Source of the DNA: an uncultured Dehalococcoidia bacterium
GTDB taxonomy: Bacteria > Chloroflexota > Dehalococcoidia > Lucifugimonadales > G958296245
Reading direction: 5' to 3'
DNA length: 64,000 bases
Assembly: GCA_958296245.1 (NCBI GenBank)
Contig: OY282458.1
Location: forward strand, 1,260,777 to 1,324,776
A program made the translations under genes and the position numbers. Numbering within the stretch: the stretch's first letter is position 1; the number at the start of each line of letters is the position of its first letter. Under the pieces are notes generated by a model, which saw only the letters and a program-made list of their open reading frames with translations, was not told the origin of the DNA and did not search any database. Positions 1 through 64,000 of this stretch are shown piece by piece.

Positions 1-228
1 GACGCGGACACGAGCCATTTGGAATGGGAGATAGACAAGCTCGTCTATGGTCTGTACGGCCTGACGGAAGAGGAGGAAACGGCCATAGAACGCAGCCTGG
101 GTCTGATACACGCCAGCGACGAGGAGGAGGACGCCGCGCTGGGCAAGTGGATCCAAGAGGGCAAGACAGGCACATACGTCAGCAAAGAAGCCGTGATGGA
201 AACGTTGCGAAACCCGTATGGAGGTTAA
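1..228 (+). CDS. 3'-terminal fragment (5' end outside window) of a DNA methyltransferase / type IIG R-M or PglX-like enzyme, with a ~45-aa extra C-terminal tail
   Basis: Frame 1 is open from nt 1 (..DADTSHLEWEIDKLVYGLYGLTEEEETAIERSLG..). The EIDxLVYxLYGLTEEE..IE motif is, from memory, the usual C-terminal signature of Eco57I/TaqI-like N6-adenine MTases. TAA at 226-228. No search run. Confidence 0.4.
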   Translation, partial: DADTSHLEWEIDKLVYGLYGLTEEEETAIERSLGLIHASDEEEDAALGKWIQEGKTGTYVSKEAVMETLRNPYGG

Positions 229-484
229 GTTCGACGCCAGCTTCAATCGCGATCTCAGGCGAATACGTGACGCAGACCTGCGCCGCAGAGTCGAGCGGGT
301 AATCGAAGAAATAGAGGGTGCGTCAGCCATCACGGAGGTAAGTGGAGTCAGAAGAATCGCGAGCCGAGGGCGTTACTACCGTATCAGGGTAGGAGACTAC
401 CGTGTGGGCATTGAGGTCGAGGGCGGCACGGTTATATTCATCAGACTCGGACACCGCCGCGAAATCTACCGTTTCTTCCGGTGA
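218..484 (+). CDS. Type II toxin-antitoxin system RelE/ParE family toxin
   Basis: 88 aa. ..GVRRIASRGRYYRIRVGDYRVGIEVEGGTVIFIRLGHRREIYR fits the RelE/StbE pattern (..yRiRvGdYRiiy.v....v.i..v.hRkdiYr). ATG 218 overlaps the upstream ORF by 11 nt. Confidence 0.8.
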   Translation: MEVKFDASFNRDLRRIRDADLRRRVERVIEEIEGASAITEVSGVRRIASRGRYYRIRVGDYRVGIEVEGGTVIFIRLGHRREIYRFFR

Positions 485-518
485 CGTCTAGCAACAGGAA
501 ACCGATATATAAGTCAAC

Positions 519-719
519 ATGGACGTGAGAATCCCTGAAGTAGGAGAAGCGCTCGTCCACCGCTTCCGGCGGCGCGAGGGTGAAATCCGGGCCGAAGTCG
601 TAAGCGTCGACCCGGAGCGCCGGGCCGTCCGCGTCCGTATGGACGGCAAGGAGTACGCCTCCCTATCCGCCGCCGCCAAAGCCGCCGCCGGAACCCCCCA
701 AAACGGCTGGATCTACTGA
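519..719 (+). CDS. Small DUF2924/DUF4357-like protein (possible DNA-binding; possibly 3'-truncated by a TGG->TGA change)
   Basis: 66 aa. The C-terminal DGKEYASLSAAAKAAAGTPQNGWIY resembles the Y.SLSaAA..i.G...NGW.fW motif of these small domains (memory-based). The stop at 717-719 aligns with TGG in the repeat copy at 6454-6558. Confidence 0.4.
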   Translation: MDVRIPEVGEALVHRFRRREGEIRAEVVSVDPERRAVRVRMDGKEYASLSAAAKAAAGTPQNGWIY

Positions 720-745
720 GGCCTCAAGAAGCAGATACCCCGGAG
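641..745 (+). repeat. Left copy (DR-L) of a ~105-bp imperfect direct repeat
   Basis: Hand alignment to 6454-6558 gives roughly 80% identity with one 1-nt indel. It includes an identical 24-nt run, ggcaaggagtacgcctccctatcc. Confidence 0.75.
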
Positions 746-834
746 CCGATAGGGCGCGTGATAGGATTGGAGCAGCACCGCCCCGCCGCAGACACAACCG
801 ATGACGGACGCAACTCAACTACGGTGAGGAAGCA

Positions 835-2391
835 GTGACTGCGCCATCCAAGATCAAGAACCTCAAGCTGAGTGTCGCCAACCTCGGCCCTATCGCCAGG
901 GCGAACATCGATCTGCGCCCGATGACTGTGTTCGTAGGACCCAGCAACACCGGCAAGTCCTACTTGGCGATCCTCATCTACGCGCTGCATAGATTTTTCG
1001 GCGGCATGATTAGTCCAAGATTAGGCCCCATATTCGGAGTCCGCTCCGTCTTTGGTATTGGGCTAATGGGAGATGAGGCGATTCCAGCCGAAGACAAAGA
1101 GGCGCTGATTAGCTGGGCAGAGGAGATGTCAAAGAGGTCAGAGCGGCTCCCAGCCCAATTGCCGGAGTCCGTTGCAAAGATGGTCCGGCGCCGACTCGAA
1201 GATATTGGCCCCTTTGCTCAATTCCTTGATGATGAAATCGCCCGCTGCTTTGGCATCGAAGAAACCAAGCGTTTGATCCGCAACGAAGTCAAGGACGGTA
1301 TGAGTGTTGTTGCGAGGCGCTCTGTCTCGGAGGAGGGGGCAGATGCTGGGTTCATTGAATACAGGTACACGAGAAGAGGAGACAAACTCGATCTGGCGGC
1401 TTCAGTCCCAAGCGCAACTCCTCTACGTATCGCGGCGCGTACCAAAGGCCGATTAACTCCGTACTCCATTCATCCTTCTGAGTTCAGGGACAACCCAAGC
1501 GAAGAGGAAAGGGCTTTCTTATTCGATGCTGTGTTGAGTGTGATTGCTGATGAGTACGGCCCAGATTTAGTTAGCCCTTTGACGCGTAGACCATACTATC
1601 TGCCCGCAGACCGCACCGGTACCATGCACGCTCACAGAACAATCGTGAGCTCCTTGATACGACACGCCCCGCGAGCAGGGCTTAGCCATGAATCTCCACT
1701 GCCCTCTCTTTCAGGAGTACTTGCCGACTTTCTCGAAGTCCTGATTGGATTGAGTGATCGAGCGCCTGCAAGATCAAGCCGCAAGGAAGACCTTGCCAAG
1801 ATGCTAGAAACCAATCTGCTGAGCGGCGCGATACTCAATAGAGAATCCGTCACCGGGTATCCTGAATTCTCATATCGGCCCGATGGGTGGGGAAAAGACC
1901 TGCCGCTCATGCATACGTCGTCGATGGTCTCAGAGCTTGCGCCGGTTGTGCTCTACCTTCGACACGTCGTTCAATCCGGCGAGGTGCTGATCATCGAGGA
2001 GCCGGAGTCTCATCTTCATCCTGCGATGCAGGTAGAGTTCATCAGACACCTGGCGGCGGCGGTGCGCGCGGGCGTCCGCGTCATGATCACGACGCACAGC
2101 GAATGGGTCTTGGACGAGCTGACCAACCTCGTTCGCCTATCGGACCTTCCGAAGTCGCGGCGAAAGGGAATCGCGGGCGCGGACTTCGCGCTCAGCCCTG
2201 AGAAGCTGGGAGTGTGGCTGTTCGAGCCAAAGAAACGCCCCAGGGGTTCTGTCGTGAAGGAGATCCCGTTCGACGAGAAATTCGGCGGTTTCCGCTCCGG
2301 GTTCGATGACGTCGCAATGGAGACCTACAATGACTACGCGGAAATATCTGACCGCATAGGGGAGACCAAGTCTGAGTACAAGTCTCGTTAG
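835..2391 (+). CDS. OLD/PtuA/GajA-type ABC ATPase (AAA_15/AAA_21-like), no fused nuclease domain
   Basis: 518 aa. Walker A GPSNTGKS (aa 35-42), Walker B/D-loop VLIIEEPESHLHP, H-loop ITTHSEW. GTG start preceded by GAGGAAG. Confidence 0.75.
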   Translation: MTAPSKIKNLKLSVANLGPIARANIDLRPMTVFVGPSNTGKSYLAILIYALHRFFGGMISPRLGPIFGVRSVFGIGLMGDEAIPAEDKEALISWAEEMSKRSERLPAQLPESVAKMVRRRLEDIGPFAQFLDDEIARCFGIEETKRLIRNEVKDGMSVVARRSVSEEGADAGFIEYRYTRRGDKLDLAASVPSATPLRIAARTKGRLTPYSIHPSEFRDNPSEEERAFLFDAVLSVIADEYGPDLVSPLTRRPYYLPADRTGTMHAHRTIVSSLIRHAPRAGLSHESPLPSLSGVLADFLEVLIGLSDRAPARSSRKEDLAKMLETNLLSGAILNRESVTGYPEFSYRPDGWGKDLPLMHTSSMVSELAPVVLYLRHVVQSGEVLIIEEPESHLHPAMQVEFIRHLAAAVRAGVRVMITTHSEWVLDELTNLVRLSDLPKSRRKGIAGADFALSPEKLGVWLFEPKKRPRGSVVKEIPFDEKFGGFRSGFDDVAMETYNDYAEISDRIGETKSEYKSR

Positions 2392-2455
2392 CAAGGTTAA
2401 ATCGGCCATTCCCGCGTCATGTCTCGTCAAGGCATGCAAGGGGAATGGTTGCTCG

Positions 2456-2851
2456 GTGGACCTGCAAGACGCGCCGCGGCCACATGTCCTGATTGACATG
2501 GACTGCCCACAGGTGCCGATCAGATCTGGAGATAAGAAATGTGACTTCGTGTTCATCAGCGACCACGGCAGCTTGGTAATCCCGCTGGAGTTGAAGAGCG
2601 GGGATCTGAGGGTCAGCGAAGTTCTAAAGCAGATACAGGCTGGCGCGCGATTCGCAGAACAATTTATCCCTCCCACGTGCAAATCGGTACGCCTCATTCC
2701 TATCGCGGTTGTTGGCGGCGGGGTCCCCCGTCCTGAACTTAAGCAATTGCGCAAAAACAGCTCCCGGGTGCGCTTCAGAGGTAAGCGGGTAAGTATCAAA
2801 ACATTGAAATCCGGACGGCCTCTCATGGAAGCTATCCGACGGGAGGATTGA
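2456..2851 (+). CDS. Small PD-(D/E)XK-like (NucS/DUF91-style core) putative nuclease
   Basis: 131 aa. KKCDFVFISDHGSLVIPLELKSGDLRVSEVLKQIQ fits D-x(n)-ExK followed by a helix with Q (compare iDil..d.dG.lvvvElKrg....v.Q). Lies 64 nt downstream of the ATPase. GTG start is uncertain. Confidence 0.5.
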   Translation: MDLQDAPRPHVLIDMDCPQVPIRSGDKKCDFVFISDHGSLVIPLELKSGDLRVSEVLKQIQAGARFAEQFIPPTCKSVRLIPIAVVGGGVPRPELKQLRKNSSRVRFRGKRVSIKTLKSGRPLMEAIRRED

Positions 2852-3149
2852 CTGAGACCGCCGCGCATGGCTCCGAAGGTTGACCCCAACCTGATTGACC
2901 CTTTACCACACCACCCTCTTAGATTCCTCACTCCGCCGGCGCTGCGTTCGGAATGACAGTTTTAGGACAGCTGGGCTGCGGGGAATGGGGAGGCTCTCAC
3001 GATTCGACTCATAGAGACTGAGCAGTTACAAGGAGACCTGGACGTTTGACAACGCCTGACGAGCTATGAGAACATGCGTACGCGGAACGACTAGAGCATA
3101 GGCCGCGTCGACGGATCGCGCGCCAGCCTACGGGACAGCTTGGTAGCTC

Positions 3150-3902
3150 ATGGCATCCTCAATCGAATGGACGGATGAGACGTGGAACCCGGTCACGGGC
3201 TGCACGCGGATTTCGCCGGGATGTGATCACTGCTACATGTTCGCCCTCTATCCCCGCCTCAGGGCTATGCGGGTCCCCGGATACGAGACGGCCCCGGACG
3301 ACGTTCGGATGCTGCGCGAGCGTTTGCTGGCCCCGTTGTCCTGGAAGAAACCGAGGCGCGTCTTCGTAAACAGCATGTCCGACGTGTTCCATCCGAGGGT
3401 GCCTTTCGAGTTCGCGCTCGATATGTTCTCGGTGATGCGGGATGCGTCGTCCCGGTACGGGCACGTTTTCCAGGTATTGACCAAGAGACCCGGGCGGGCC
3501 GTGGCCTGGTGGGAGCGGTACAAGGAGAGGTTCCCCGACGGATGGCCCGCGAACGTGTGGATGGGTACGTCGGTGGAAAGTGGGAAGTACGCTCCCAGGC
3601 TCACGGTCTTGGCCCGTTTGCCTGCGCCGATACGGTTCGTATCCGCAGAGCCGCTGTTGGAACGGATCGACTTGAAGCCCTGGCTGAAGAACGGGTCGTT
3701 GCAGTGGGTGATCGTCGGCGGCGAGAGCGGAGCGGGGGCAAGGCCGATGGATATCGATTGGGTTCGCGATCTCCGCAGCCAATCCGTCGAAGCCGGCGTC
3801 GCGTTTTTCGTCAAGCAGCTGGGCGGCGCCCGCAACAAACGAGGCGGCGGCGCCGCGACGGTGGACGGCAAGCTTTGGCGCGAGATGCCAACGGCAGAGT
3901 AG
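3150..3902 (+). CDS. DUF5131 / phage Gp37-Gp68 family protein (three-Cys motif)
   Basis: 250 aa. IEWTDETWNPVTGCTRISPGCDHCY.., ..VFVNSMSDVFH.., ..QVLTKRP.., ..FVSAEPLL.., ..WVIVGGESG..ARPM.., ..FFVKQLGG match the family consensus as I recall it. Confidence 0.85.
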   Translation: MASSIEWTDETWNPVTGCTRISPGCDHCYMFALYPRLRAMRVPGYETAPDDVRMLRERLLAPLSWKKPRRVFVNSMSDVFHPRVPFEFALDMFSVMRDASSRYGHVFQVLTKRPGRAVAWWERYKERFPDGWPANVWMGTSVESGKYAPRLTVLARLPAPIRFVSAEPLLERIDLKPWLKNGSLQWVIVGGESGAGARPMDIDWVRDLRSQSVEAGVAFFVKQLGGARNKRGGGAATVDGKLWREMPTAE

Positions 3903-3995
3903 AGGCAGGTATGAGCAACGCGCAATTCGGCGGCGACTTGTGTTCCGAGAAACCAGATTGAGGATAGCCAGAATGGCCTACGGTCGTTTTACAAC

Positions 3996-6011
3996 ATGAA
4001 GATCTCGAAACTGACGTCTGACGACCTCGACGCAGTGGACCAACTAATGCTGCCTAACACGCGTACGGTTGGCTTTCTTCCTCGAGAAGTGCTTAAAGAG
4101 TACCTTAACAAGGATTGCGTGCTGGGCGTTTCAACACAGGATGACACGCTCATTGGCTACCTTCTGTACGGTGCCTACCTTGATCGTTTCCGTGTTACCC
4201 AGCTCTGTGTATCAGAAGGCTTCAGAAACAAAGGAGTGGCCAGGAAACTTATTGAGACACTGAAGAAGTCAACCACTACTCAGAAAGTCATAGTACTCAA
4301 CTGCCGCAATGATTTTCCGGCACATTCTATGTGGCCTAAACTAGGGTTCGTATCTGTAGATGAACATCGAGGCCGATCTAAAGAAGGACACCTTCTAACT
4401 CGGTGGCTCCTTACTTTGGCCCCTGATGATCAGCTAGCGCTTTTCCGCGCTAATGTATCAGACACGGTTCTTGATGCCGTTATCGATGCCCAGATATTCT
4501 TCGACTTCTATAAGCCTGATATAGACGTAACACAGCCATCGAAAGCCCTGATCTCAGACTCCTTTGTAGATTCACTCAATCTTTGGTTTACCGACGAACT
4601 TCTCAATGAGATCGGCCGGAACCAAAGTGATGACGAACGCAGAGCTGATAGAGAGAGAACCGGACAGTTCTCCCAAGTGCAGCATAACCCTCGCACTGTT
4701 GAAGCTCTCTCGGAAACACTCAAACAGATTCTACCGAGTGGCACTGAGAGTCAGCTATCGGACATCAATCATCTGGTAAAGACTGCGGCCTCCGACGTCG
4801 ATATATTTGTTACTAGAGACCAAGGCCTATTGAAGAAAGCTGTGGAGATCGCCGACTTGGTAAACCTAGAAGTTCTATCCCCGACGGCCTTGATCCTTCG
4901 ACTAAACGAGTTATCAGAAGAGCAGCCCTATGAACCGAACCGTGTCTCCGGGCTTGGCCTCCGGTGGCAACGCCTGAGCTCTGATGAGCTCTCTACTTTT
5001 CCCTTCGACCGCTTCCTTGACAGGGGGGAGTCGTTGCGTTCGTTCAGGGGGGCGATAGACTCCTTTCTCGTGGATAGTCGTCCTCACGAGTTGGATGTCC
5101 TACGGTCTGAGGAAGATCCCGTCGCTTTGCGGGGCCTCAGATATGATCTCGAACGAGGACTTACCATATCTCTATGCAGGGTGGCGAAAAAAACTTCTAG
5201 CGACTCAGCGTTGTTCGGTAGATTTCTGATTGCGGATGCGATATGCAAGGCTATGTACAAGAATCTGAACATGGTGAAAATCGAGGCGGCTTCTCTTACA
5301 ACAGGTCTCGTCAAAGGTCTTTGGGAGATGGGATTTACAAGATGCGGAGACTATTTCATAAGATTCTCATTTGCGCGCTATCTTGATCGAAAAGATGTAT
5401 TATCGGAAATTGCAGAACTGGCCCCGGAAGCCGTCGACAACTATCAGAGTATGACGCCTTTAAAACTCGAACGTTCTTGCTCGCCACTGCTTTCTCCGGT
5501 GGATCAAGGTTATTTTTTGATGCCAATTCGCCCAGGATACGCCCTCAATCTATTTGACATGCAACAGTCATCGCATGACCTATTCGGAGGAACACCAGGA
5601 TTACTGCTGCGCTGGAGCAACGTCTATTATCGAAAGGCGACTTATTATAAGATGCTAGAGGCGCCTGGGCGGATACTGTGGTACTTAAGTGGAGACCGAA
5701 AGGAGGTCGCGTACATATCCCATCTTGATAAAGTGGTAATCGACACTCCGAAGGATCTTTTCCGGCGATTCAGGAAATATGGAACGTTCGAATGGGAAGA
5801 CCTCTACAAGATGTGTAGAGGAGATATAAGCAAGAAACTCATGGCCTTGCAATTCTCTCATACCTTCCCTCTGCGGCGACCGATTCCGCTAGCCGAGGTC
5901 TGGAAAGCGTTCGATGAGGATGGGGTCGGGCGATCCGTACAGTCTCCAAGAAGTATACCATGTAGCACATATCGGAAGCTGTTCCAACTGGGGTACCCGG
6001 AGCAGTCATGA
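3996..6011 (+). CDS. Multidomain protein: N-terminal GNAT acetyltransferase, PIN-like nuclease, uncertain middle domain (degenerate GNAT?), C-terminal ASCH/PUA-like domain
   Basis: 671 aa. GNAT motif A at VSEGFRNKGVARKLIE. PIN acidic residues at AVIDAQIFFDF, TDELLNEI, SDINHLVKTAA and IFVTRDQGL. The C-terminus (YFLMPIRPGYALNLF..ILWYLSGDRKEVAYISHLDKVV..) resembles ASCH. Visibly A/T-richer than its flanks. Confidence 0.6.
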   Translation: MKISKLTSDDLDAVDQLMLPNTRTVGFLPREVLKEYLNKDCVLGVSTQDDTLIGYLLYGAYLDRFRVTQLCVSEGFRNKGVARKLIETLKKSTTTQKVIVLNCRNDFPAHSMWPKLGFVSVDEHRGRSKEGHLLTRWLLTLAPDDQLALFRANVSDTVLDAVIDAQIFFDFYKPDIDVTQPSKALISDSFVDSLNLWFTDELLNEIGRNQSDDERRADRERTGQFSQVQHNPRTVEALSETLKQILPSGTESQLSDINHLVKTAASDVDIFVTRDQGLLKKAVEIADLVNLEVLSPTALILRLNELSEEQPYEPNRVSGLGLRWQRLSSDELSTFPFDRFLDRGESLRSFRGAIDSFLVDSRPHELDVLRSEEDPVALRGLRYDLERGLTISLCRVAKKTSSDSALFGRFLIADAICKAMYKNLNMVKIEAASLTTGLVKGLWEMGFTRCGDYFIRFSFARYLDRKDVLSEIAELAPEAVDNYQSMTPLKLERSCSPLLSPVDQGYFLMPIRPGYALNLFDMQQSSHDLFGGTPGLLLRWSNVYYRKATYYKMLEAPGRILWYLSGDRKEVAYISHLDKVVIDTPKDLFRRFRKYGTFEWEDLYKMCRGDISKKLMALQFSHTFPLRRPIPLAEVWKAFDEDGVGRSVQSPRSIPCSTYRKLFQLGYPEQS

Positions 6012-6637
6012 ACGCCTCATCTACGCCGTTGCTTTTTTCCTTGAAACCCCACTATGCCAAGTTGGTATTCGGCGGGCTAAAGAAAGTCGAGCTGAGACGA
6101 CGTATCCTGACAGGGATCGAAGGGATCGACGTGTTCGTCTACGCTACCAGTCCGGTACGGAAGTTACAAGGCGGATTCCGGGTTGGGAAGGTATGGACTG
6201 GAACACCTGAGAAGATTTGGGGCGTTGTGTCCAAGAGTGCGTGTGTAGAGAAACCGGACTTTGACGCCTACTACGCTGGACGGGACGTCGCTTGCGCTTT
6301 GGAGATCACGGAGACCTGGGAATACTCGAATCCCATGGGACTCAGCGCGTTGAGGGACACGTTTCAAAATTTCGTGGTCCCACAATCCTGGCGATATGTG
6401 AAACCTCAAGAGCGTCAATCCTTCCTACGGATGGAGCGTGCCGGAGGAGTGAAGGATGGCAAGGAGTACGCCTCCCTATCCTCCGCCGCTCAAGCCGCCA
6501 TAGGCCCCCACAAGAACGGTGGATCTACTGGGCCCTCAAGAAGCACTAAAGATAGCCGGACACCTTATCGACAAGTGGTAACGCGCACGACCGACCCTGA
6601 GCCCCCGCACGGTATAATTGAGGCTTTACGCTGCTAA
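6008..6637 (+). CDS. ASCH domain protein; its 3' end reads into repeat DR-R and is probably frameshifted (alternative end 6549)
   Basis: LLFSLKPHYAKLVFGGLKKVELRRR..DVFVYATSPVRKLQGGFRVGKV..PEKIW..ALEITETWEY fits the ASCH pattern. ATGA start/stop overlap with the 671-aa gene. After aa ~148 the ORF is repeat-derived. Confidence 0.65.
   Translation: MNASSTPLLFSLKPHYAKLVFGGLKKVELRRRILTGIEGIDVFVYATSPVRKLQGGFRVGKVWTGTPEKIWGVVSKSACVEKPDFDAYYAGRDVACALEITETWEYSNPMGLSALRDTFQNFVVPQSWRYVKPQERQSFLRMERAGGVKDGKEYASLSSAAQAAIGPHKNGGSTGPSRSTKDSRTPYRQVVTRTTDPEPPHGIIEALRC
6454..6558 (+). repeat. Right copy (DR-R) of the ~105-bp direct repeat; remnant of the 3' half of a 519-719-like gene
   Basis: Encodes DGKEYASLSSAAQAAIGPHKNG. 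After a 1-nt deletion relative to DR-L (ggctgg -> ggtgg) it continues WIYWALKKH* (stop 6547-6549) in the next frame. Confidence 0.75.
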
Positions 6638-6698
6638 CCAACAACCGCAAGCACTTTGAGCGTTGTGCATGGGCTGACCATGCTATCGGTGTGATTCC

Positions 6699-9600
6699 TT
6701 GAACATCCTCCACGCCACGACCGATCCGCCGCTGCTGGCGCGCCTGAAGGAGATGCTGGGCAGTTCCTCGCGCGCCGACGTAGCCGTCGGCTACTTCTTC
6801 ATCAGCGGCTTCGAGGCCGTGGCCGACGACCTAGCGCGGCTGGACAAGGTGCGCGTCCTCGTCGGGCGCACCGATAGGCACGTCCTGGAGGAGGTCGCTT
6901 TGGGCCTTCAGCAGACGCAGGCGCTCCGCGCGCGCATCGACGCCGATGCGTTGGTACAGCGCAGCGAGCGAAGTCAGATCGCGCAACAGGCCGTCGCCCG
7001 CATCGCGGAGGGCGTATCCGTCCTACCTCAGGAGCGCGGGACCGAGTCCGCCGTGTCGAGGCTGCGGGACATGGTGGCCGTCAAGCGGGTCGAAGTGCGG
7101 GCATACCTGCGCAGTCCGCTGCACGCCAAGGCGTACCTGTGCTGGTACGACAACCACGCCGAACCCGGCGCCGCCGTCGTCGGCTCATCCAACCTCACGC
7201 TCGCCGGCTTCACCGGCAACACCGAGCTCAACGTGCGCGTCACCGGCGACGCGGAGATGTCGGCACTGCGCGACTGGTTTGACGCCCTGTGGGAAGACTC
7301 GGAGGACATCAGCGGCGCGCTGGTGACGGAGTTGGGGCGGTCGTGGGCGCTGGCGAAGACCCCGCCGTACCACGTCTATCTGAAGGCCCTCTACGAGCTC
7401 TACTACGCCGAGCTTGGCGGCGGCCCGTTGCCGGTCTCACCCCGCGACGAGGAGTTAGCCAACTTCCAGCTTGACGCCGTGAGCCTAGGCCTGTCCATGA
7501 TCGAGGCCCACGGCGGCTGCTATATCGGCGACGTGGTGGGTCTGGGCAAGACCTTCGTCGGCGCGGAGTTGCTGCGCCAGCTTCGAGTCAGCTATCCGAA
7601 CGACGGCCCGCCGCTCATCCTCTGCCCCGCCGGGCTGAAACCGATGTGGCAGGTCTTCAACGAGCGATTCGGCCTCGGGGCCGAGGTCGTGTCCCACAGC
7701 ATGATCACGGCCCCCCCGGAGGCCGAGTTCGACGAAGAGATGGGGCGTTACGTGGACGTCGACCCGTCCGGACACGGCATCGTGCTGGAGCGCGCTTACC
7801 CCAACCGAGGGCCGGTGCTTGTGGACGAAGCCCACAACTTCCGCAACGCGAACCGGCGGTCGAAGGGCCTGAGCGACTACCTGGAATCGGGCGATCATAA
7901 GGTGGTGCTGCTGAGCGCGACCCCCCAGAACCTGGGGCCGATGGACGTCTACCGCCAACTCAGGCTGTTCTTGGACGACACCGACCACGGCCTGAGCATA
8001 GAGCCCCTCAGCCTGGAGGCCTACTTCCGCAATGCCCAGAGGTGGCTGGAGTACCGCGCAGAGTACGAGAACTACGAGGCCGAGTTACGAATGCGGCGGG
8101 CCGGCGGCTCCATCGGGGCGTCCCCGGTGGAGCCCAACAAGCCGAACGTGCCCAAGGCGGAGATAGGCCAGGTGCTTTCCTCGGTCTTCATACGACGGAG
8201 GCGAAAGGACATACAGGACCTCTACGGCGACACGGCGATGGTCGACGGCAAGCCGGTGCGCTTCCCCGACCCGGTGCTGGACAACGAGGGGTACAGGCTC
8301 GACAAGGTGTACGCAAAGGCAGGCTCTCTCCAGGATCTGCAATGTCTGCTGCGCAAGCACAAGGCGGCGAGGTATCGTGCTACGGAGTACGTCAAGCCCG
8401 AGGTCAGGGAGAACCCCGAATACCGCGACCTGTTCCGGGCAAGGGACAGGATCGCCAGGCTGATGGGCGTGCTGCTCTTCAAGCGGTTGGAGTCGAGCAT
8501 CGAAGCGTTCCGCTCGACGCTGCACTCCCTGATGACCAGTAACCGCAACTTTCGGGAGGCGCTCGCGTCCGGCTATGTCCCCATCGGCAGCACGGCGACC
8601 CGCCTACTGTCCGGCCAGTCCTTCGACGTGGATGACCTCCTCGAGGTCCTGAGACAGGAGGAGGAGCGCCGCCGGCAGCTGGGCAGCGGGCGCGACAAGC
8701 TGGTACATGACTCCGGCGACTTCGAGGCCGACCGGTGGAAGGAAGACCTCGATGCGGACTTCGACCTGCTGAATGACGTCGTGCGTAGAGTCGAGGACAT
8801 CGGGCCGGGAGACGACGACAAGCTCCGGGCGCTGAGGGGTTTCCTGGACCGGCCCGAAGTTCGGGCGGGCAAGGTGCTGATCTTCTCCGAGGCCGAAAAG
8901 ACCGTCGAGTACCTGTACCGCGAGCTGAACCCCGGAGGCCGCGACCCGGAGATAACGCGGCTGACCGGGAGCACGAGCCACGATGCGGAGAACATCGTAA
9001 AGCGGTTTTCTCCAACGTGGAACTTGGCGCAGGGCGAGACGCTCCCCGGCCCTGAGGTCAGGGTGCTGTTGGCAACCGACGTCGTATCCGAGGGTCAGAA
9101 CCTACAGGATTGCGCTCGGGTGCTGAACTACGACCTGCACTGGAACCCGGTCCGGCTGATCCAGAGGTTTGGCCGCGTCGACCGCATCGGCGCCGAGCAT
9201 GAGGTGATCAACCTTCACAACATGTGGCCGGACGTGGAGGTCGACGCGGAGCTTTCGCTAACGGAACGGTTGCACGGGCGCATCCAATCGTTCCATGACC
9301 TGATAGGGCTGGATAGCAAGCTGCTGTCCGATGCCGAGAGGCTGAACGCCAACGCGATGTACCGCATCTACGAGGGCAAGAAGCTGCCTGAGATCGACGA
9401 CGGCCTGGACGAGGTGGCCGCGAATCAGCGGGCCATCACCCTGCTTCAGCGCATCCAGGAGGGCGACCCCGATCTGTGGCGTACGATCACGAGCTTGCCG
9501 GACGGGATACGGTCGGCCCTCCGGGTGCGGACCACGCAGGTTGAGGGTCCCAACGAGAGCTACGCGCAGAACGTACTGCCTATTGAAGGCGCGCAGGCGC

Positions 9601-10193
9601 CGCTCATGTCGCCGCAGACGTTCGCATCCATACCCTCGCCGTTCGACGACCCCAGGCAGGGTGAGACGCTGGTCCTGCTCAGCGCGGGAGGCGTCAGGAG
9701 CTGCTACGCCGTCGACGACAGCCTGCAGCCGCGCCCGATCAGCCCAGCCCAGTTCATAGCGGCGGCCGAATGCGGCCCCGAAACGCCGGCCGAGCAGCTG
9801 CCCGCAGACACGAACGAGCGTGTCATGGCGGCGTTCGAGGCCTTCAGAACGGACTTCCAGCGGCGGTTGGGCAGGGCCAGAAGGCCGCGCGATACCCGGG
9901 CGCGCCGGTACGTGTCACGCCATCTCGGCATAGCCATGCGCGAGGCCGGGCAGGACGGCGCGGCAATGCGCCGTATCGAGGTCCTCAGGCGGATATTCCT
10001 CGGGGACGTGTCGCCGCAGGTCGAGAGCGCCCTGGGTGAAATCAGGAATCTGAGGCTGGGAAGCCCAGTGTTGCTGACCCGGCTTGAGGCCCTGCGCGAG
10101 CGGTACCGCCTCAACCCCCGCGACGACTCCAAACGGTCACAGCCTCAGGAGCCGCAGATAATCCGCATTGTCTGCTCCGACGGCCTTGTGTGA
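6699..10193 (+). CDS. PLD (HKD) nuclease - SNF2-family helicase fusion protein
   Basis: 1164 aa. HKD-like LHAKAYLCWYD..VVGSSNLT at the N-terminus. SNF2 motifs VLVDEAHNFRN, LLSATPQN, LLATDVVSEGQNLQD, QRFGRVDRIG. Start is TTG 6699 or ATG ~6753. Confidence 0.85.
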   Translation: MNILHATTDPPLLARLKEMLGSSSRADVAVGYFFISGFEAVADDLARLDKVRVLVGRTDRHVLEEVALGLQQTQALRARIDADALVQRSERSQIAQQAVARIAEGVSVLPQERGTESAVSRLRDMVAVKRVEVRAYLRSPLHAKAYLCWYDNHAEPGAAVVGSSNLTLAGFTGNTELNVRVTGDAEMSALRDWFDALWEDSEDISGALVTELGRSWALAKTPPYHVYLKALYELYYAELGGGPLPVSPRDEELANFQLDAVSLGLSMIEAHGGCYIGDVVGLGKTFVGAELLRQLRVSYPNDGPPLILCPAGLKPMWQVFNERFGLGAEVVSHSMITAPPEAEFDEEMGRYVDVDPSGHGIVLERAYPNRGPVLVDEAHNFRNANRRSKGLSDYLESGDHKVVLLSATPQNLGPMDVYRQLRLFLDDTDHGLSIEPLSLEAYFRNAQRWLEYRAEYENYEAELRMRRAGGSIGASPVEPNKPNVPKAEIGQVLSSVFIRRRRKDIQDLYGDTAMVDGKPVRFPDPVLDNEGYRLDKVYAKAGSLQDLQCLLRKHKAARYRATEYVKPEVRENPEYRDLFRARDRIARLMGVLLFKRLESSIEAFRSTLHSLMTSNRNFREALASGYVPIGSTATRLLSGQSFDVDDLLEVLRQEEERRRQLGSGRDKLVHDSGDFEADRWKEDLDADFDLLNDVVRRVEDIGPGDDDKLRALRGFLDRPEVRAGKVLIFSEAEKTVEYLYRELNPGGRDPEITRLTGSTSHDAENIVKRFSPTWNLAQGETLPGPEVRVLLATDVVSEGQNLQDCARVLNYDLHWNPVRLIQRFGRVDRIGAEHEVINLHNMWPDVEVDAELSLTERLHGRIQSFHDLIGLDSKLLSDAERLNANAMYRIYEGKKLPEIDDGLDEVAANQRAITLLQRIQEGDPDLWRTITSLPDGIRSALRVRTTQVEGPNESYAQNVLPIEGAQAPLMSPQTFASIPSPFDDPRQGETLVLLSAGGVRSCYAVDDSLQPRPISPAQFIAAAECGPETPAEQLPADTNERVMAAFEAFRTDFQRRLGRARRPRDTRARRYVSRHLGIAMREAGQDGAAMRRIEVLRRIFLGDVSPQVESALGEIRNLRLGSPVLLTRLEALRERYRLNPRDDSKRSQPQEPQIIRIVCSDGLV

Positions 10194-27348: not shown

Positions 27349-28428
27349 ATGTCAAACACCTTCGGCCACCTGTTCCGGGTGACTACGTGGGGCGAGTCGC
27401 ATGGCGACGCTGTGGGCGTCGTCGTGGACGGCTGCCCGCCCAGGATCAGGATCGATTTGGACGACGTCCAGAGAGAGTTGGACCGCCGACGTCCGGGGCA
27501 GAGCGAGATCACCACGCAGCGCAGGGAGTCCGACCGCGCCGAGATCCTGTCGGGCGTGTTCGACGGCCTGACGCTCGGCACCCCGATACTGATCGGCGTA
27601 TGGAACGAGGACCAGCGTAGTAAGGACTACGAGCACATGCGCGCCAAGTTCCGCCCGTCCCACGCCGACTACACCTACCAGGCCAAGTACGGCATCAGGA
27701 ACTGGAAGGGCGGCGGCAGGGCCAGCGCCAGGGAGACCGTGGGGAGGGTGGCGGCGGGCGCCATCGCCCGGAAGGTCCTCGCCCAAGAGCACGGCGTGGA
27801 GATAGTGGGCTACGTCAAGCAGGTGTGGACGCTGGCGGCAGACGTAGACCCCGACACGGTGACCGCTGCCGAGGTCGAGTCGAACATCGTCCGATGCCCC
27901 GACCCGGACGCGGCGCCGCGCATGATAGACAGGATCAAGGAGGCGCGCAAAGACGGCGACTCCCTCGGCGGGGTGGTCGAGGCGGTGGCGCGCAACGTGC
28001 CCCCCGGTCTCGGAGAGCCGGTCTTCGATAAGCTGGAGGCCGAACTGGGGCGCGGCGTGCTCTCGCTGCCGGCGTGCAAGGGATTCGAGATCGGCTCGGG
28101 GTTCGGCGGCGTGACGATGACCGGATCGCAGCACAACGACCCGTTCTACAACGACCAAGGCCGCATCCGCACCCGAACCAACCGCTCCGGCGGCGTCCAG
28201 GGCGGCATCTCCAACGGCGAGAACATCATCATCCGCGCCGCCTTCAAGCCCACGGCGACCATACTCAGGCCCCAGGAGACGGTGGACGTCGAGGGCAACC
28301 CCACGACCCTGGAGGGCAGGGGCCGCCACGACCCGTGCGTCCTCCCCCGCGCCGTCCCCATGGTCGAGGCCATGATGGCCTTGGTGCTCATGGACCACAC
28401 CCTGCGCCAGCGAACGCAAGCGGGGTGA
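27349..28428 (+). CDS. aroC: Chorismate synthase
   Basis: [31 protein letters not shown].., ..RPGQS..T.R.E.D...ILSG.., ..[11 protein letters not shown].. The ORF's upstream 142 codons overlap the opposite-strand amidohydrolase and are rejected. Confidence 0.9.
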
Positions 28429-28689
28429 CACGGGCTCTGGCAACTGGCGGGCGAACCGAGCTAAACACGCTGGAGATGGGAGGCGTTGCCAAGTGATAGA
28501 TGACATCCTAATGAAAAAACAAGTCGCTATTTATGATCCCCCGAAGGTTGGCGAAACGCCTCAGAAACGCAAGGCATGGTGGCGGCCTTTCTGAGTGGGG
28601 GGATGGTGAGGCGCGCACGATTACCGCCGTCCAATACCGGGAAGGCTCACCCGCCTTGATAGTCGACCTGACAAGAGGAGGATTAGGCC

Positions 28690-30651
28690 GTGATCAAGAC
28701 CATCCTGCTCACGATTATAACCATACTTACCGGCACAGCCTGTGCTGTGTTTAGCCCCACGCCGACCAGCACGCCCAGACCCACCCCCACCAGCACGCCC
28801 ACCTCCGCGCCGGACAGGTATGCTCTGGTCGCGTTCTACCTCGCCACGGGCGGCGGGAGCTGGTTCATCGACATGAACTGGTTCCCCAACAAGCCCCTAG
28901 ACGAGTGGATGGGTGTCATCACTGACGACAGCGGTCGCGTCGCCGGATTGGTCCTCCGGAGTAACCGGTTGAGTGGTGAGATACCGTTGGAGCAGCTGGG
29001 CAACCTTACCAACCTGACAATATTGATCCTCTCGGAGAACCAGTTAAGCGGGGAGATACCGCCGGAGTTGGGCAGCCTCACCAATCTGACAGGTCTGGGG
29101 CTCTCGGGGAACCAGTTAAGCGGTGCGATACCGCCGGAGTTGGGCAGCCTCACCAATCTGACAATATTGTCCCTCTGGGAGAACCAGTTAAGCGGTGAGA
29201 TACCGTCGGAGTTGGGCAGCCTCACCAACCTGGAACGGCTCGACCTCGATAAGAACCAGTTGACTGGTAAGATACCGCCGGAGTTGGGCAGCCTCACCAA
29301 TCTGGAACGACTCTACCTCTCGGAGAACCAGTTGAGTGGTGCGATACCGACGGAGTTGGGCAGCCTCACCAATCTGACAATATTGTCCCTCTGGGAGAAC
29401 CAGTTGAGCGGGGAGATACCGTCGGGGTTGGGCAGTCTCACCAACCTGGAACGACTCTACCTCGATAAGAACCAGTTGAGCGGGGAGATACTGCCGGAGT
29501 TGGGCAGTCTCACCAACCTGGAACGACTCTACCTCGATAAGAACCAGTTGAGCGGGGAGATACTGCCGGAGTTGGGCAGCCTCTCCAACCTGGAAAGGCT
29601 CCGCCTCTCGGAGAACCGGTTGAGCGGGGAGATACCGCCGGAGTTGGGCAGCCTCATCAACTTGGAACGGCTCGACCTCTCGGAGAACCAGTTGAGCGGG
29701 GAGATACCGCCGGAGTTGGGCAGCCTGACCAATCTGGAACGACTCGACCTCTCGGAGAACGAGTTGATCGGTGCGATACCGCCGGAACTGGGCAGCCTGA
29801 CCAATCTGGAACGGCTTGACCTCTCGGAGAACGAGTTGATCGGTGAGATACCGTCGGAGTTGGGCAGGCTCCTCAATCTGGCGGAGCTGAAACTCTCTGG
29901 GAATCGGCTTACGGGGTGCATACCTGTGGGTTTGAAGTATATGCCTACCAGTGATCTTCCCAAGCTTGGCCTGGAGTTCTGCCAAGCGCCCACGCCGACG
30001 CCGGACAGGGATGTGCTGGCCGTGTTCTACGATGCCACGGGCGGCCCGAACTGGGTGGACAATACGAACTGGTTGAGCGACGCGCCCCTTTTCAAGTGGC
30101 GCGGCGTCACCACTGACGACAGCGGCCGCGTCACCAAATTGTCCCTCTCGGAGAACTGGTTGAGGGGGGAGATACCGCCGGAGTTGGGCAGCCTCTCCAA
30201 TCTGACAGCATTGTTCCTCTCGGAAAACCAGTTAAGCGGGGAGATACCGCCGGAACTGGGCAACCTCTCCAATCTGACAACATTGTTCCTCTCGGAGAAC
30301 TGGTTGAGTGGGGAGATACCGTCGGAGTTGGGCAGCCTCTCCAATCTGACAGTATTGTTCCTCTCGGAGAATCAGTTAAGCGGGGAGATACCGTCGGAAC
30401 TGGGCAGCCTCTCCAATCTGGAATGGCTGGAGCTCTGGGGGAACTGGTTGAGTGGTGCGATACCGCCGGAGCTGGGCAGCCTCCGCAATCTGGCGGAGCT
30501 GAAACTCTCTGGGAATCGGCTTACGGGGTGCATACCTGTGGGTTTGAGAGACGTGGATGCCAATGACTTTCCCGAGATGGGCTTGCCGTTCTGCCAAACG
30601 TCCAACACCCCCGCTAGCACGCCCATACCCACGCCGGCGCCTACCCGATAG
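28690..30651 (+). CDS. Secreted/lipoprotein-like leucine-rich repeat protein, plant-specific-type 24-aa LRRs (14 + 6 repeats)
   Basis: Signal-like MIKTILLTIITILTGTAC, a Pro/Thr linker, two modules each with an LRRNT-like cap (..ALVAFY.ATGG..W....NW....PL..W.GV..D..GRV..L.L), then repeats L.NL..L.L..N.LSGEIP.ELGS. Confidence 0.85.
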   Translation: MIKTILLTIITILTGTACAVFSPTPTSTPRPTPTSTPTSAPDRYALVAFYLATGGGSWFIDMNWFPNKPLDEWMGVITDDSGRVAGLVLRSNRLSGEIPLEQLGNLTNLTILILSENQLSGEIPPELGSLTNLTGLGLSGNQLSGAIPPELGSLTNLTILSLWENQLSGEIPSELGSLTNLERLDLDKNQLTGKIPPELGSLTNLERLYLSENQLSGAIPTELGSLTNLTILSLWENQLSGEIPSGLGSLTNLERLYLDKNQLSGEILPELGSLTNLERLYLDKNQLSGEILPELGSLSNLERLRLSENRLSGEIPPELGSLINLERLDLSENQLSGEIPPELGSLTNLERLDLSENELIGAIPPELGSLTNLERLDLSENELIGEIPSELGRLLNLAELKLSGNRLTGCIPVGLKYMPTSDLPKLGLEFCQAPTPTPDRDVLAVFYDATGGPNWVDNTNWLSDAPLFKWRGVTTDDSGRVTKLSLSENWLRGEIPPELGSLSNLTALFLSENQLSGEIPPELGNLSNLTTLFLSENWLSGEIPSELGSLSNLTVLFLSENQLSGEIPSELGSLSNLEWLELWGNWLSGAIPPELGSLRNLAELKLSGNRLTGCIPVGLRDVDANDFPEMGLPFCQTSNTPASTPIPTPAPTR

Positions 30652-30666
30652 ACCCGGACACCCGCG

Positions 30667-30792
30667 TCACGCCAACGACTCTTTCCCATACGACTCGTCC
30701 AGCAGGTCGGTTATGTAGCGCACCTGGACGGGCTTACCGGAGCGGCGGGCGCCTAGCTGAAGTTGGATGAGGCAGCCGGGGTTTGCCGTCGC
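30667..30792 (-). pseudogene. Duplicated 3'-terminal fragment (last 41 codons + stop) of glcF
   Basis: Near-identical to 32468-32593 (I saw one synonymous difference). No upstream coding continuation. Confidence 0.75.
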
Positions 30793-30922
30793 TTGCGCCC
30801 ACTTTGTTTAGAGTGTCCCTGAAATGGATTTGTGAAGGCTCTCCGAGGGACAGGGCCGCCGTCCAATACCGGGAAGGCTCACCCGCCTTGATAGTCGACC
30901 TGACAACGGGGAGGATTAGGCC

Positions 30923-47055: not shown

Positions 47056-47131
<76 letters not shown>

Positions 47132-62139: not shown

Positions 62140-62145
62140 GCTCCG

Positions 62146-63291: not shown

Positions 63292-64000
63292 GCGTTATCC
63301 CTTGCCGGAAGAACATTAAACTCCGAGAAAAAATCGAGGAATTTGCCGAGATACTGAAGTCCGAGTCACACAAACTCGGTAGTCACGGCCTGGATGAACA
63401 GGATTTCTACAATAGCGGCTTGTTCAGAGGCACCATTGAGCGTATCCGCGGTCAGTTCTCCGCGACTATGCGCGAGAAGCGCGAATTCGCTCATTCCATC
63501 CTCAACTACATGCAGGATCAAGGCTTCATTGGTGAGTGGAAGTCTGCGGGCGAATCCAATAGGCATGACTACACCGTGCAGTTGGAAACCGGTCGACAAG
63601 CCGTGATTGAATTAAAGGGATGTCTCGACGGGAACAATACGAACATCTTTGAGCGTCCACCTCATGCTAATGAGTTTATCATTTGGAGCATATGCACCAA
63701 TCCCGGAGCCGACCCTAGGCACAACGCGTGGTCTGGCATCCACACCAGACTGAGCGCAGAGATCATTTCGCGCCAACAGCGAGTAGACGGCATCGTCATC
63801 TGGGACATGGTCTGCGGAACCATGGGCCGGCCGTGTCCCAAGTTGGACGATAACTCAGATAGGCTAACTGAGGTAGAGCCATTCTCGTTGCCGCCACCCT
63901 GTCTATATCTGTTGCCTGCGACCATTCCGAGCCCAAGGAATAATCCTCGTCCGCCGCCACAATCCCTTGAAGACGTTCGGATCATGCAAGCCTTCAGCGA
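63288..64000 (+). CDS. Putative type II restriction endonuclease (PD-(D/E)XK-like), 3' end outside window
   Basis: Not in the ORF track because it is open-ended. My translation MSVIPCRKNIKLREKIEEF...NRHDYTVQLETGRQAVIELKGC... has no stop to nt 64000. ATGA overlap with the dcm stop. Candidate D-x16-ELK motif. Confidence 0.5.
   Translation, partial: MSVIPCRKNIKLREKIEEFAEILKSESHKLGSHGLDEQDFYNSGLFRGTIERIRGQFSATMREKREFAHSILNYMQDQGFIGEWKSAGESNRHDYTVQLETGRQAVIELKGCLDGNNTNIFERPPHANEFIIWSICTNPGADPRHNAWSGIHTRLSAEIISRQQRVDGIVIWDMVCGTMGRPCPKLDDNSDRLTEVEPFSLPPPCLYLLPATIPSPRNNPRPPPQSLEDVRIMQAFS

Follow-up and report, generated by a model that had tools for sequence, protein, structure and literature searches.

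Stacked candidate defence modules and a repeated small-gene end in a variable slot between methyltransferase and PLD-SNF2 genes of an uncultured Dehalococcoidia bacterium

The window analysed here (the whole 64,000-nt stretch of DNA, to which all coordinates refer) carries, as judged from protein family matches, a two-gene restriction-like frame with a cargo slot between its halves: an MmeI-like methyltransferase (MTase) gene on the left and a PLD-SNF2 helicase gene on the right. The slot holds three stacked and unrelated candidate defence modules, namely an AAA ATPase with a partner protein, a DUF5131 gene, and a GNAT gene with an ASCH gene. The end of a small gene is present on both sides of this cargo. 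We interpret the right copy as a scar left by recombination, a decaying remnant and not a functional site. It is probable (roughly 0.6) that related loci swapped the cargo by recombination for which their conserved flanks served as anchors, one of the joints being illegitimate. The features discussed are:

1-228, + strand: MmeI-like (Type IIG family) methyltransferase gene, 3' end, bounding the slot on the left (LVYGLYGLTEEE motif)
218-484, + strand: ParE-family toxin gene (Pfam PF05016 1.3e-10, profile positions 1-89 of 89)
519-752, + strand: small DUF2924/DUF4357-like gene, TGA-interrupted (sub-threshold Pfam matches, homologues)
641-733, + strand: left repeat copy, covering the final 31 small-gene codons (repeat search, MAFFT, blastn)
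835-2391, + strand: module 1 gene A, AAA_15/AAA_21 ATPase, PD-T4-4_A / PDC-M47A-like (Pfam 3e-19; PADLOC PD-T4-4_A 6.5e-36)
2456-2851, + strand: module 1 gene B, 131-aa partner protein (weak PADLOC PDC-M47B match, 0.004)
3068-3934, + strand: module 2, DUF5131 gene (3150-3902) plus upstream region (Pfam PF07505 1.6e-79)
3996-6011, + strand: module 3 gene A, N-terminal GNAT acetyltransferase with a PDC-M11A-like C-terminal region (Pfam Acetyltransf_10/7/1; PADLOC PDC-M11A 2.9e-15)
6008-6453, + strand: module 3 gene B, ASCH-domain PDC-M11B gene (PADLOC PDC-M11B 1.3e-30, whole profile)
6454-6545, + strand: right repeat copy, a 5'-truncated, frameshifted small-gene pseudogene fragment (84% identity to 641-733)
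6699-10193, + strand: PLD(HKD)-SNF2 helicase gene, right flank of the slot (Pfam PLDc_2, Helicase_C)

The frame genes and the variable slot

The MTase 3' end is colinear with the MTase ends of L010, L075, L076 and others (L numbers denote related loci). Full-length relatives of the MTase matched PADLOC REase_MTase_IIG (2e-145) and Pfam MmeI_Mtase, Eco57I and TaqI_C, and positions 138-228 encode a C-terminal extension which co-occurs with ParE in relatives. The PLD-SNF2 protein, whose relatives in 74 loci share 53-88% amino acid identity, matched PADLOC C3a139 'HKD+Snf2' (2.5e-56) and, more weakly, DrmD. Both genes occur as a pair in at least 74 genome loci, in addition to metagenome loci. This unstudied pairing is widespread in Dehalococcoidia and is a candidate host system.

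The gap between the two genes was seen in 80+ related Dehalococcoidia loci, its contents varying by locus. Measured in 42 related loci, the distance from MTase end to PLD-SNF2 start runs from 16 nt to 9.4 kb, in agreement with the suggestion of the initial annotation that defence cargo is swapped here at a recombination hot spot. The genes are only 16-124 nt apart in L074, L064 and L034. The empty site which the same annotation proposed looking for was found in two loci: L076 reads MTase-ParE-small gene-PLD-SNF2, with ParE and the small gene alone in the slot, and in L068 the small gene immediately precedes PLD-SNF2. Positions 1-734 of the window are colinear with L075, L076 and L102 at 71-76% nucleotide identity, and the homology ceases at the end of the small gene. 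The left edge of the slot in this lineage is the ParE toxin gene plus the small DUF2924/DUF4357-like gene.

Homologues of the small gene (n = 65) encode 77-81 aa. In the window the called ORF (519-719) is cut short by a premature TGA at 717-719, the intact end lying at 750-752. That TGA acts as a stop in this organism is shown by the ParE gene, which ends in TGA. The interrupted codon is that of W67, a residue invariant across 54 small-gene sequences and encoded by TGG in relatives L011, L021, L068, L073 and L100-L102. The repaired window protein scored below the Pfam gathering threshold for DUF2924 (27.8 bits; cut-off 31.2), DUF4357 (22.6; cut-off 38.4) and RAMA (16.9; cut-off 35.2) alike, and many of its homologues have precomputed PF11149/PF14267 matches. 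By these matches the small gene appears related to DUF2924, DUF4357 and RAMA, yet sits at the edge of those models.

The cargo modules

A single 5.7-kb cassette of five genes, lacking integrase and transposase, had originally been described between the repeats. Its bracketing repeats and gene content held up, with Pfam and PADLOC finding no recombinase, integrase or transposase in the ORFs of 734-6453, but the cargo is a stack of three modules and not one unit. The suspicion of more than one acquisition was well founded, as the AAA, DUF5131 and GNAT/ASCH modules are each found alone in different relatives. Five candidate defence genes are flagged by the analysis, and four of the five cargo proteins match PADLOC PDC families (M47A/B, M41B/M30B, M11A and M11B).

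Module 1 (686/758-2832) is common to L010 and L033 at 76-79% nucleotide identity. The 131-aa partner adjoins the ATPase in both loci, and does so again in a second L010 copy. Module 2 has a host-like G+C content and is 87% identical at the nucleotide level to L100 4597-5464 and L101 9144-10011, two loci in which the DUF5131 module follows the small gene and module 1 is absent. The DUF5131 protein matched PADLOC PDC-M41B (8.8e-81) and also PDC-M30B. In module 3 the GNAT gene is A/T-rich and shares its 3' end with L010. G+C is 46-50% over approximately 3950-6000, 54% to 6450, 59% at 6451-6750, 63% at 6601-6900 and 67-69% at 6751-7350. The rise is gradual, in contrast to the original placing of the end of the A/T-rich stretch at the right repeat.

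The repeat pair and the truncated ASCH gene

Repeat search, MAFFT and blastn all gave the same imperfect direct repeat, 641-733 versus 6454-6545, with 83.9% identity over 93 nt and a single 1-nt gap. The presence of the repeat, its identity (put at ~80%) and its one gap had thus been read correctly from the outset, whilst its length had been overestimated at ~105 bp. The blastn comparison, a check proposed in the initial annotation, gave the repeat E = 1e-22 within the 64-kb window, the second-ranked self-match having E = 0.003. The 24-nt run reported as identical in both copies (GGCAAGGAGTACGCCTCCCTATCC) is present; it is conserved coding sequence, and L078 also has it. Translation of both copies gave the shared peptide DGKEYASLS(A/S)AA...NGWIYW(G/A)LKK(Q/H), as first noted. 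Further details were likewise confirmed: the N-terminal half stands ahead of the left copy only, the left-copy TGA at 717-719 is TGG in the right copy, and the right copy lacks 1 base after 6519 (AACGGCTGG becoming AACGG-TGG), beyond which the +1 frame restores WIYWALKKH* and ends at 6549 (ORF 6292-6549). This deletion lies outside any homopolymer. Similarity does not extend ~25 nt past the stop, as had been claimed; it continues for 14 nt beyond the premature TGA and ends where the intact small gene of relatives loses conservation, their homology to the window ending at 733-742 in every case. No terminal inverted repeats were found at 734/6453.

The right copy lacks the N-terminal half of the small gene, carries a frameshift, has nine private states (two in the left copy) and is altered at invariant G68 and near-invariant Q61 and Q72, indicating that it is a pseudogene. 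On its own the repeat is a scar and has no function. Most of the differences between the copies, which are 85% identical in this comparison, are private to the right one. With these private changes discounted, the copies differ at 6 of 93 sites, as compared with at least 13 between the left copy and any sampled relative, and no sampled relative comes as close to the right copy as the left copy does. Exchange with a close relative and intragenomic duplication fit this result equally well. No other locus with the small gene (~15 loci) has a second copy, and none of 102 loci carries both copies with no cargo between them, the arrangement named initially as counting against the insertion reading.

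The ASCH gene is cut at approximately codon 150, where small-gene sequence takes over from codon 42 onwards. About 22 native tail codons are gone, and the ORF continues into the repeat without a change of frame, terminating at 6637. Homologues of 150-172 aa have tails of the form ...MER-DxxE-KD-ITLE..., where the window has MER-AGGV-KD followed directly by GKEY. The joint shows an apparent 4-nt microhomology, GGAY, as read from a protein alignment of native ASCH tails and not from donor DNA. The right junction (6439-6460) was seen in the window alone.

Origin of the arrangement and related systems

If cargo was exchanged through the flanks, DNA of a related locus with other cargo would have recombined into the slot, its putative uptake being by natural transformation or another route. 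One crossover would have been homologous, within the conserved left flank of MTase, ParE and small gene, and the other joint illegitimate, connecting the donor ASCH gene to the middle of the recipient small gene. An event of this kind would count as homology-facilitated illegitimate recombination. It would bring a full-length small gene in on the left, stranding the recipient's 3' remnant on the right, just before PLD-SNF2. The right copy would then be the last 31 codons of a second small-gene allele, joined at GGAY and decaying since. L010 keeps the cassette order at 75-79% nucleotide identity, the same level as its flanks, and reproduces window positions 686-2709 and 5893-6438, indicating that the left junction is biological and old. 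As the cassette has diverged to the same degree as the flanks, we infer that the event itself is old.

Mirror-image scars were found in at least 12 relatives, where the 5' end of the PLD-SNF2 gene recurs as a partial copy left of the cargo. These fragments are on the same strand as the intact gene and 650-1900 nt upstream of it, with cargo between, and their breakpoints vary (+26, +30, +53, +75-78, +190 and +239). They probably result from a right-flank-anchored version of the same process. The locus type bears a readable footprint: truncated and decaying flank-gene ends border the cargo, now on one side of the slot and now on the other, and their breakpoints vary. This pattern points to flank-anchored recombination with one illegitimate joint.

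Campbell-type integration, in which a cargo circle with a small-gene 3' handle enters by a single homologous crossover and duplicates the handle on both sides, is a possible though unlikely origin. It predicts the topology exactly (full-length left copy, 5'-truncated right copy, then the native downstream gene), the PLD-SNF2 5' fragments fit circles carrying a PLD-SNF2 handle, and the repeat copies are mutually closest after removal of the private right-copy changes. However, the ~15 loci with the gene include no second handle, 93 nt is a short RecA substrate, the three modules that make up the cassette have had separate histories, and there is no sign of how circles form or transfer.

A purely intragenomic rearrangement is doubtful. 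It would involve no foreign allele, only a local duplication by unequal crossing-over or template switching, after which cargo built up between the copies or partial deletions occurred. The closeness of the two copies described above speaks for it, but several steps would be needed to set the fragment exactly at the truncated ASCH gene. Nor does it account for the flank-gene fragments which recur at the opposite cargo border in many relatives, and cargo modules clearly move between loci.

Could the right copy instead be a functional DUF4357-like DNA-binding tail on the ASCH protein, the 1-nt deletion being a long-read error? Up to the deletion the fragment shares its reading frame with the ASCH gene, Pfam descriptions place DUF4357/RAMA-type motifs as C-terminal tails elsewhere, and related contigs (3-4x nanopore assemblies) show spurious frameshifts in this very gene. 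Such a fusion is nevertheless highly improbable. None of the best 120 of 454 ASCH homologues (150-229 aa) has a DUF2924 or DUF4357 annotation or a fitting length, and the 16 native tails read directly contain nothing like the repeat, being ...DRLEKDITLEP... or otherwise unrelated. In addition, an AlphaFold model shows that the beta-strand half of the domain is missing from the fragment, the changes at G68, Q61 and Q72 affect conserved residues, and the deletion is not homopolymeric.

Islands of tyrosine integrases enter the 3' ends of tRNA or protein genes and are flanked by attL/attR direct repeats. The window resembles them in that imperfect repeats of a gene 3' end, one full-length and one a 3' fragment, bracket foreign DNA. 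Site-specific integration or transposition, with an att site in the small gene and the 24-nt run as crossover core or target duplication, would account for this topology of entry and gene regeneration, and the run does exist. It is scarcely credible here: 734-6453 has no recombinase, the run is ordinary coding sequence shared with L078 and no core extends beyond conserved coding, the small-gene remnant in L010 begins at 686 and not 641, PLD-SNF2 breakpoints vary, and 93 nt at 84% identity is unlike a transposon target-site duplication. In a transposon or att sense, the insertion with target duplication offered initially is not supported, there being no second copy elsewhere either. Both specific candidates were rejected, an integrase island for want of a recombinase and of a shared core recurring at the same position, and a transposon given the 93-nt, 84% repeat, the missing terminal inverted repeats and the missing transposase. 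A false cassette from a chimeric join at one repeat is equally hard to credit even though the source, a 2.69-Mb contig, is apparently a metagenome-assembled genome, since the repeat is too short and divergent to fool a long-read assembler, the left junction and cassette order recur in the independent genome L010, and the flanks on both sides are the usual partners of this locus type.

The locus clearly illustrates a theme that is already known. The 'guilt by embedding' study from which the PADLOC PDC families derive (Payne, Hughes, Fineran & Jackson 2024, bioRxiv 10.1101/2024.01.29.577857) describes BREX, DISARM and Type I RM hosts; it does not discuss the route of cargo entry, and the word 'recombination' is absent from it. 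As there, cargo lies between restriction-like genes and differs among related hosts, the frame genes being adjacent in some loci (L074, L064, L034) and separated by up to 9.4 kb of cargo in others, and the embedded genes are candidate defence families by PADLOC match. Here the host is instead an MmeI-like MTase and HKD-SNF2 pair, and flank-gene fragments supply a mechanistic footprint.

In polymorphic toxin loci, displacement arrays of orphan immunity genes or C-terminal modules, known from T6SS effector-immunity clusters, Rhs and CDI (Kirchberger et al. 2017, PMC5361080, citing Jackson et al. 2009 and Poole et al. 2011), were proposed to arise by homology-facilitated illegitimate recombination. 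They share with our locus a conserved anchor gene beside a variable region, and incoming modules which push older sequence aside and leave truncated, decaying pieces with part of the anchor gene in them. In contrast, defence modules take the place of toxin tips or immunity genes as cargo here, and what has been stranded is no exchangeable toxin domain but a small accessory gene's end or, in relatives, the helicase gene's start. There is no sign of fragment reuse.

Defence hotspots between conserved flanks, with no identifiable mobilisation, are known from E. coli (Hochhauser et al. 2023, PMC10121019), and core defence hotspots of P. aeruginosa are cited in the same paper. These too have variable defence content and empty and occupied states, many without mobile-element genes. 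Here, however, the flanks are not housekeeping core genes but the two halves of a candidate defence system. The slot is small, at 0-9 kb, and the host is an uncultured Dehalococcoidia. Our results bear on how defence genes reach hot spots without mobile-element machinery, in embedded slots and core-genome hotspots alike, and the flank-fragment footprint could be sought systematically in other loci with embedded cargo.

A more speculative extension, which we consider unlikely, is that frame-gene ends can serve again and again as homology handles, namely the terminal ~90 nt of the small gene and the initial ~30-240 nt of PLD-SNF2. Modules would then carry a handle between Dehalococcoidia genomes and be taken into the slot through RecA-dependent recombination. 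The restriction-like locus would in effect house a cassette exchange system that resembles an integron but needs no integrase. The +75-78 breakpoint, which recurs beside AF2212-like/PIN toxin-antitoxin modules in several relatives, would in that case mark a mobile 'handle plus cargo' unit and not shared ancestry.

The direct repeat and its decayed right copy

The locus comprises a two-gene frame, an MmeI-like methyltransferase (MTase) gene and a PLD-SNF2 helicase gene, with a slot between them (PDC families are PADLOC candidate defence families):

1-228: 3' end of the MTase gene, with the LVYGLYGLTEEE motif read in the sequence
218-484: ParE toxin gene (Pfam)
519-752: small gene; sub-threshold DUF2924, DUF4357 and RAMA matches (Pfam); 65 homologues of 77-81 aa
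835-2391: AAA_15/21 ATPase gene, PD-T4-4_A/PDC-M47A (Pfam, PADLOC)
2456-2851: gene for a small partner of the ATPase (PADLOC and comparison with relatives)
3150-3902: DUF5131 gene, PDC-M41B/M30B (Pfam, PADLOC)
3996-6011: GNAT and PDC-M11A gene (Pfam, PADLOC)
from 6008: ASCH-domain PDC-M11B gene (Pfam, PADLOC)
6699-10193: PLD(HKD)-SNF2 helicase gene (Pfam; PADLOC 'HKD+Snf2' 2.5e-56)

Three independent methods (repeat finder, MAFFT and blastn) returned the same single direct repeat, 641-733 against 6454-6545, confirming the initial annotation of a repeat flanking the cassette (734-6453). The copies are 83.9% identical over 93 nt with one 1-nt gap, and within the 64-kb window the blastn match has E=1e-22, the segment's next best match reaching E=0.003. 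Its description required amendment. The repeat measures 93 nt rather than about 105 nt, it ends where conservation of the intact gene ends rather than 25 nt beyond the true stop, and G+C rises gradually at the right copy, where a sharp end to an A/T-rich stretch had been described.

The left copy forms the 3' end of ORF 519-719, whose translation through the TGA gives MDVRIPEVGEALVHRFRRREGEIRAEVVSVDPERRAVRVRMDGKEYASLSAAAKAAAGTPQNGWIY*GLKKQIPRSR*. TGA is a genuine stop in this genome, since the neighbouring ParE gene terminates in TGA with full-length Pfam coverage. In the right copy the N-terminal half is absent and one base is missing after 6519, past which WIYWALKKH* follows in the +1 frame (ORF 6292-6549).

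The right copy is a decaying pseudogene remnant of the small gene. It is nearest to the left copy, at 85% identity compared with 66-79% to relatives, and carries private states at 9 of the 15 differences, the left copy having two, one of them the TGA. Eight of the 11 differing codons alter the amino acid. An alignment of 54 small-protein homologues shows no variation at W67 and G68 and very little at Q61 and Q72; at such family-conserved positions the right copy has G68A, Q61K and Q72H. We also considered the right copy as a native ASCH tail, a reading contradicted by homologue lengths, annotations and native tails. No DUF2924 or DUF4357 annotation was found in the best 120 of 454 ASCH homologues (150-229 aa), and 16 native tails read directly were of the form ...MER-DRLE-KD-ITLEPKRTW... 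or otherwise unrelated. Aligned with native tails, the window protein follows them as far as MER-AGGV-KD, where it changes to GKEY, indicating an ASCH gene lacking about 22 codons, with the joint at AAG GAT/GGC (slash marking the joint). The small gene reads ATG GAC GGC at this position, so that GGAY is common to both.

Two other candidates were rejected. An ASCH truncation point common to the window and the related locus L010 (nucleotide homology ends at 6438/7551) fails because six further native codons are retained in the window (AGGVKD aligned with DxxEKD), so the breaks differ. The 24-nt identical run was rejected as an att core because it is part of the conserved coding sequence and also occurs in L078.

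A variable slot with modular cargo

A genome scan with the helicase recovered 74 loci at 53-88% amino acid identity, nearly all from Dehalococcoidia or other Chloroflexota MAGs; further loci were added via homologues of the small protein (all related loci carry handles from L001 to L102). Most have the MTase upstream of the helicase. Full-length MTase relatives are around 1030-1070 aa with Pfam MmeI_Mtase/Eco57I/TaqI_C domains and a PADLOC Type IIG REase_MTase match at 2e-145. In the 42 loci with both ends placed, the two genes are separated by 16 nt to 9.4 kb (median 1.9 kb) and so frame a variable slot. The earlier suggestion of a recombination hot spot for defence cargo is thus borne out, and the empty site that the initial annotation proposed seeking was found twice. 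L076 has the order MTase-ParE-small gene-PLD-SNF2 with only about 20-70 nt between small gene and helicase, the latter 86% identical to that of the window, and L068 has the small gene immediately before the helicase.

When present, the small gene always occupies the left edge of the slot (L011, L021, L068, L073, L075-L081, L100-L102), and homology between the window and these loci ends in every case at 733-742, the end of the gene. No second copy was found in the other loci carrying it, nor did a metagenome scan with the small-protein alignment show one; it returned only 18 distant relatives, at 39-55% identity and for the most part on short contigs.

Sequence comparison resolves the cassette into three modules rather than one unit. 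The AAA module (686/758-2832; G+C about 55%) also occurs in L010 and L033 at 76-79% nucleotide identity. The DUF5131 module (3068-3934; about 63%) follows the small gene in L100 and L101 at 87% identity, without the AAA module. The GNAT/ASCH module (about 49%) recurs in L010, partly deleted (window 5893-6438). This recurrence in different relatives agrees with the earlier proposal of more than one acquisition. L010 keeps the window's order (small-gene 3' remnant from 686, AAA module, ASCH gene) and diverges from the window across the cassette about as much as in the flanks. It follows that the left junction is biological, and that this arrangement is old. A promoter and terminator scan of 1-7000 gave no signal at the junctions above shuffled expectation. 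An 18-nt inverted repeat (2637-2654/3112-3129, 94% complementary) straddles the boundary of modules 1 and 2, its arms lying in the gene for the 131-aa partner and in the region upstream of DUF5131; it may be chance. Elsewhere in the window, G+C is 55% at the right end (62001-64000) and about 60% at 28001-32000, compared with about 64% otherwise, and a tRNA-Lys lies at 47056-47131.

Mirror scars and the origin of the repeat

Self-comparison of the relatives revealed partial copies of the PLD-SNF2 gene, on the same strand and made up of its first 25-240 nt. Cargo separates them from the intact gene, which lies 650-1900 nt downstream.

Partial copies of the PLD-SNF2 5' end and the cargo they bracket
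L010, fragment 8075-8104: 376-aa and 197-aa genes, minus strand
L033, fragment 8086-8139: 391-aa ORF, a transposase-like candidate
L060, fragment 8113-8142: PD-T4-10_B/PDC-M63B-like gene
L012, 190-nt fragment: between two toxin-antitoxin modules
L016, L019, L023, L024, L026, L027, L065 and L069, various fragments: AF2212-like/PIN-type toxin-antitoxin cargo, read directly in L024, L027 and L016 and inferred in the others from a spacing of about 700 nt

L023, L026 and L065 represent one shared event; upstream of the gene, the remaining fragment loci show no colinearity. Breakpoints vary (+26, +30, +53, +75-78, +190 and +239). The window is the only left-flank example of a gene-end fragment among the loci compared, and neither PLD-SNF2 5' nor left-flank fragments were found inside 734-6453. 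Even so, the pattern as such, with an imperfect repeat of a flank-gene end on either side of the cargo, is general for this locus family. It is this family-wide pattern, rather than the window repeat alone, that gives the finding its significance.

The repeat in the window serves no function: it is a scar, left by an event that is probably old. Pfam and PADLOC found no recombinase domains in the genes of 734-6453, in line with the initial annotation of a cassette devoid of integrase and transposase. Insertion with target duplication, one of its proposals, is not supported, nor is site-specific insertion, given this absence and the varied breakpoints of the mirror scars. The same two facts argue for recombination between related loci that differ in cargo, as do three others: one copy is always complete and the other truncated on its cargo-facing side, the copies are 81-97% rather than 100% identical, and modules move between loci. 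In such an exchange, homology in the conserved flank would anchor one end and an illegitimate joint would close the other, sometimes within the flank-gene copy carried by the recipient. We infer that this homology-facilitated illegitimate recombination (HFIR), with the donor and recipient history it implies, produced the scars. The same product would result if a circle with a gene-end handle had integrated in Campbell fashion, a course we regard as unlikely. A purely local duplication is also unlikely.

Experiments have demonstrated HFIR in Acinetobacter, Pseudomonas stutzeri and Streptococcus pneumoniae, according to Kirchberger et al. 2017, PMC5361080 (citing de Vries & Wackernagel 2002, Meier & Wackernagel 2003 and Prudhomme et al. 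2002), and it has been put forward as the explanation of T6SS effector-immunity arrays and of Rhs displacement (Kirchberger et al. 2017, PMC5361080). Polymorphic toxin loci are a classic setting for displacement scars (Kirchberger et al. 2017, PMC5361080), defence hot spots without identifiable mobilisation are recognised (Hochhauser et al. 2023, PMC10121019), and the presence of defence genes inside defence systems is established and gave rise to the PDC families matched here, in work that does not address the mechanism of embedding (Payne et al. 2024, bioRxiv 10.1101/2024.01.29.577857). The window locus belongs to these kinds; particular to it are the frame of MmeI-like MTase and HKD-SNF2 helicase, the phylum and the legible footprints.

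Features of the small gene and the flank genes

The AlphaFold model of the small protein (pLDDT 70) has four strands followed by two helices, and Foldseek against the PDB returned only weak Tudor/SH3-like matches (E>0.3). One Trp codon of the gene, otherwise invariant, has become a stop in two lineages by different mutations: TGA in the window (717-719) and TAG in L077-L081 (e.g. L078 10199-10201), seen in five samples. Cargo lies downstream of the small gene in both. Either chance struck one of two readily mutated TGG codons twice, or loss of the 11 C-terminal residues is tolerated or selected. In L011 (7491-8651) and L073 (6708-7046) a predicted membrane protein gene lies 3' of the small gene, its ORF beginning within the last codons of the latter in the +1 frame (MGVLGPQEAGG... 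over NGWVYWGLKKQ); the same alternative frame appears in the frameshifted database proteins P0060 and P0062.

Several apparent variants were artefacts. Database proteins P0064 and P0065 (47-50 aa, starting MDGKEY) were rejected as 5'-truncated copies with the same breakpoint because the DNA, in 3x nanopore contigs, keeps a frameshifted N-terminal half. In L075, L076 and L100 (3-4x nanopore contigs) frequent frameshifts break the MTase, small and PLD-SNF2 genes into several called genes, which is how P0064 and P0065 arose. An inverted small-gene pair 9 kb apart in L091 (Ga0118677_10016793, 1-9962) proved to be an assembly artefact, the contig being a perfect palindrome with 100% identical arms and mirrored gene order.

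The window MTase has a C-terminal extension of about 30 aa (...DEEEDAALGKWIQEGKTGTYVSKEAVMETLRNPYGG*), encoded by 138-228 and overlapping the start of the ParE gene (218-484). The extension tracks ParE: both occur in the window, L001, L015, L029, L052, L070, L075, L076 and L010, and the extension is missing in the ParE-less L033, L011, L073 and L078. No separate antitoxin ORF lies beside ParE. The extension looks like a putative ParD-type antitoxin fused to the MTase, which would make the cell addicted to the MTase gene.

In L003, L014, L025, L050, L051 and L058 an inverted partial copy of the MTase C-terminal target-recognition region lies directly 3' of the gene at 79-93% identity (e.g. L025 7331-7944 against 8841-8255), an arrangement typical of specificity switching by inversion. 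The PLD-SNF2 gene is split near residue 610 by an IS110-family transposase gene in L077, L079 and L080, three assemblies from a single lineage, and is intact in L078.
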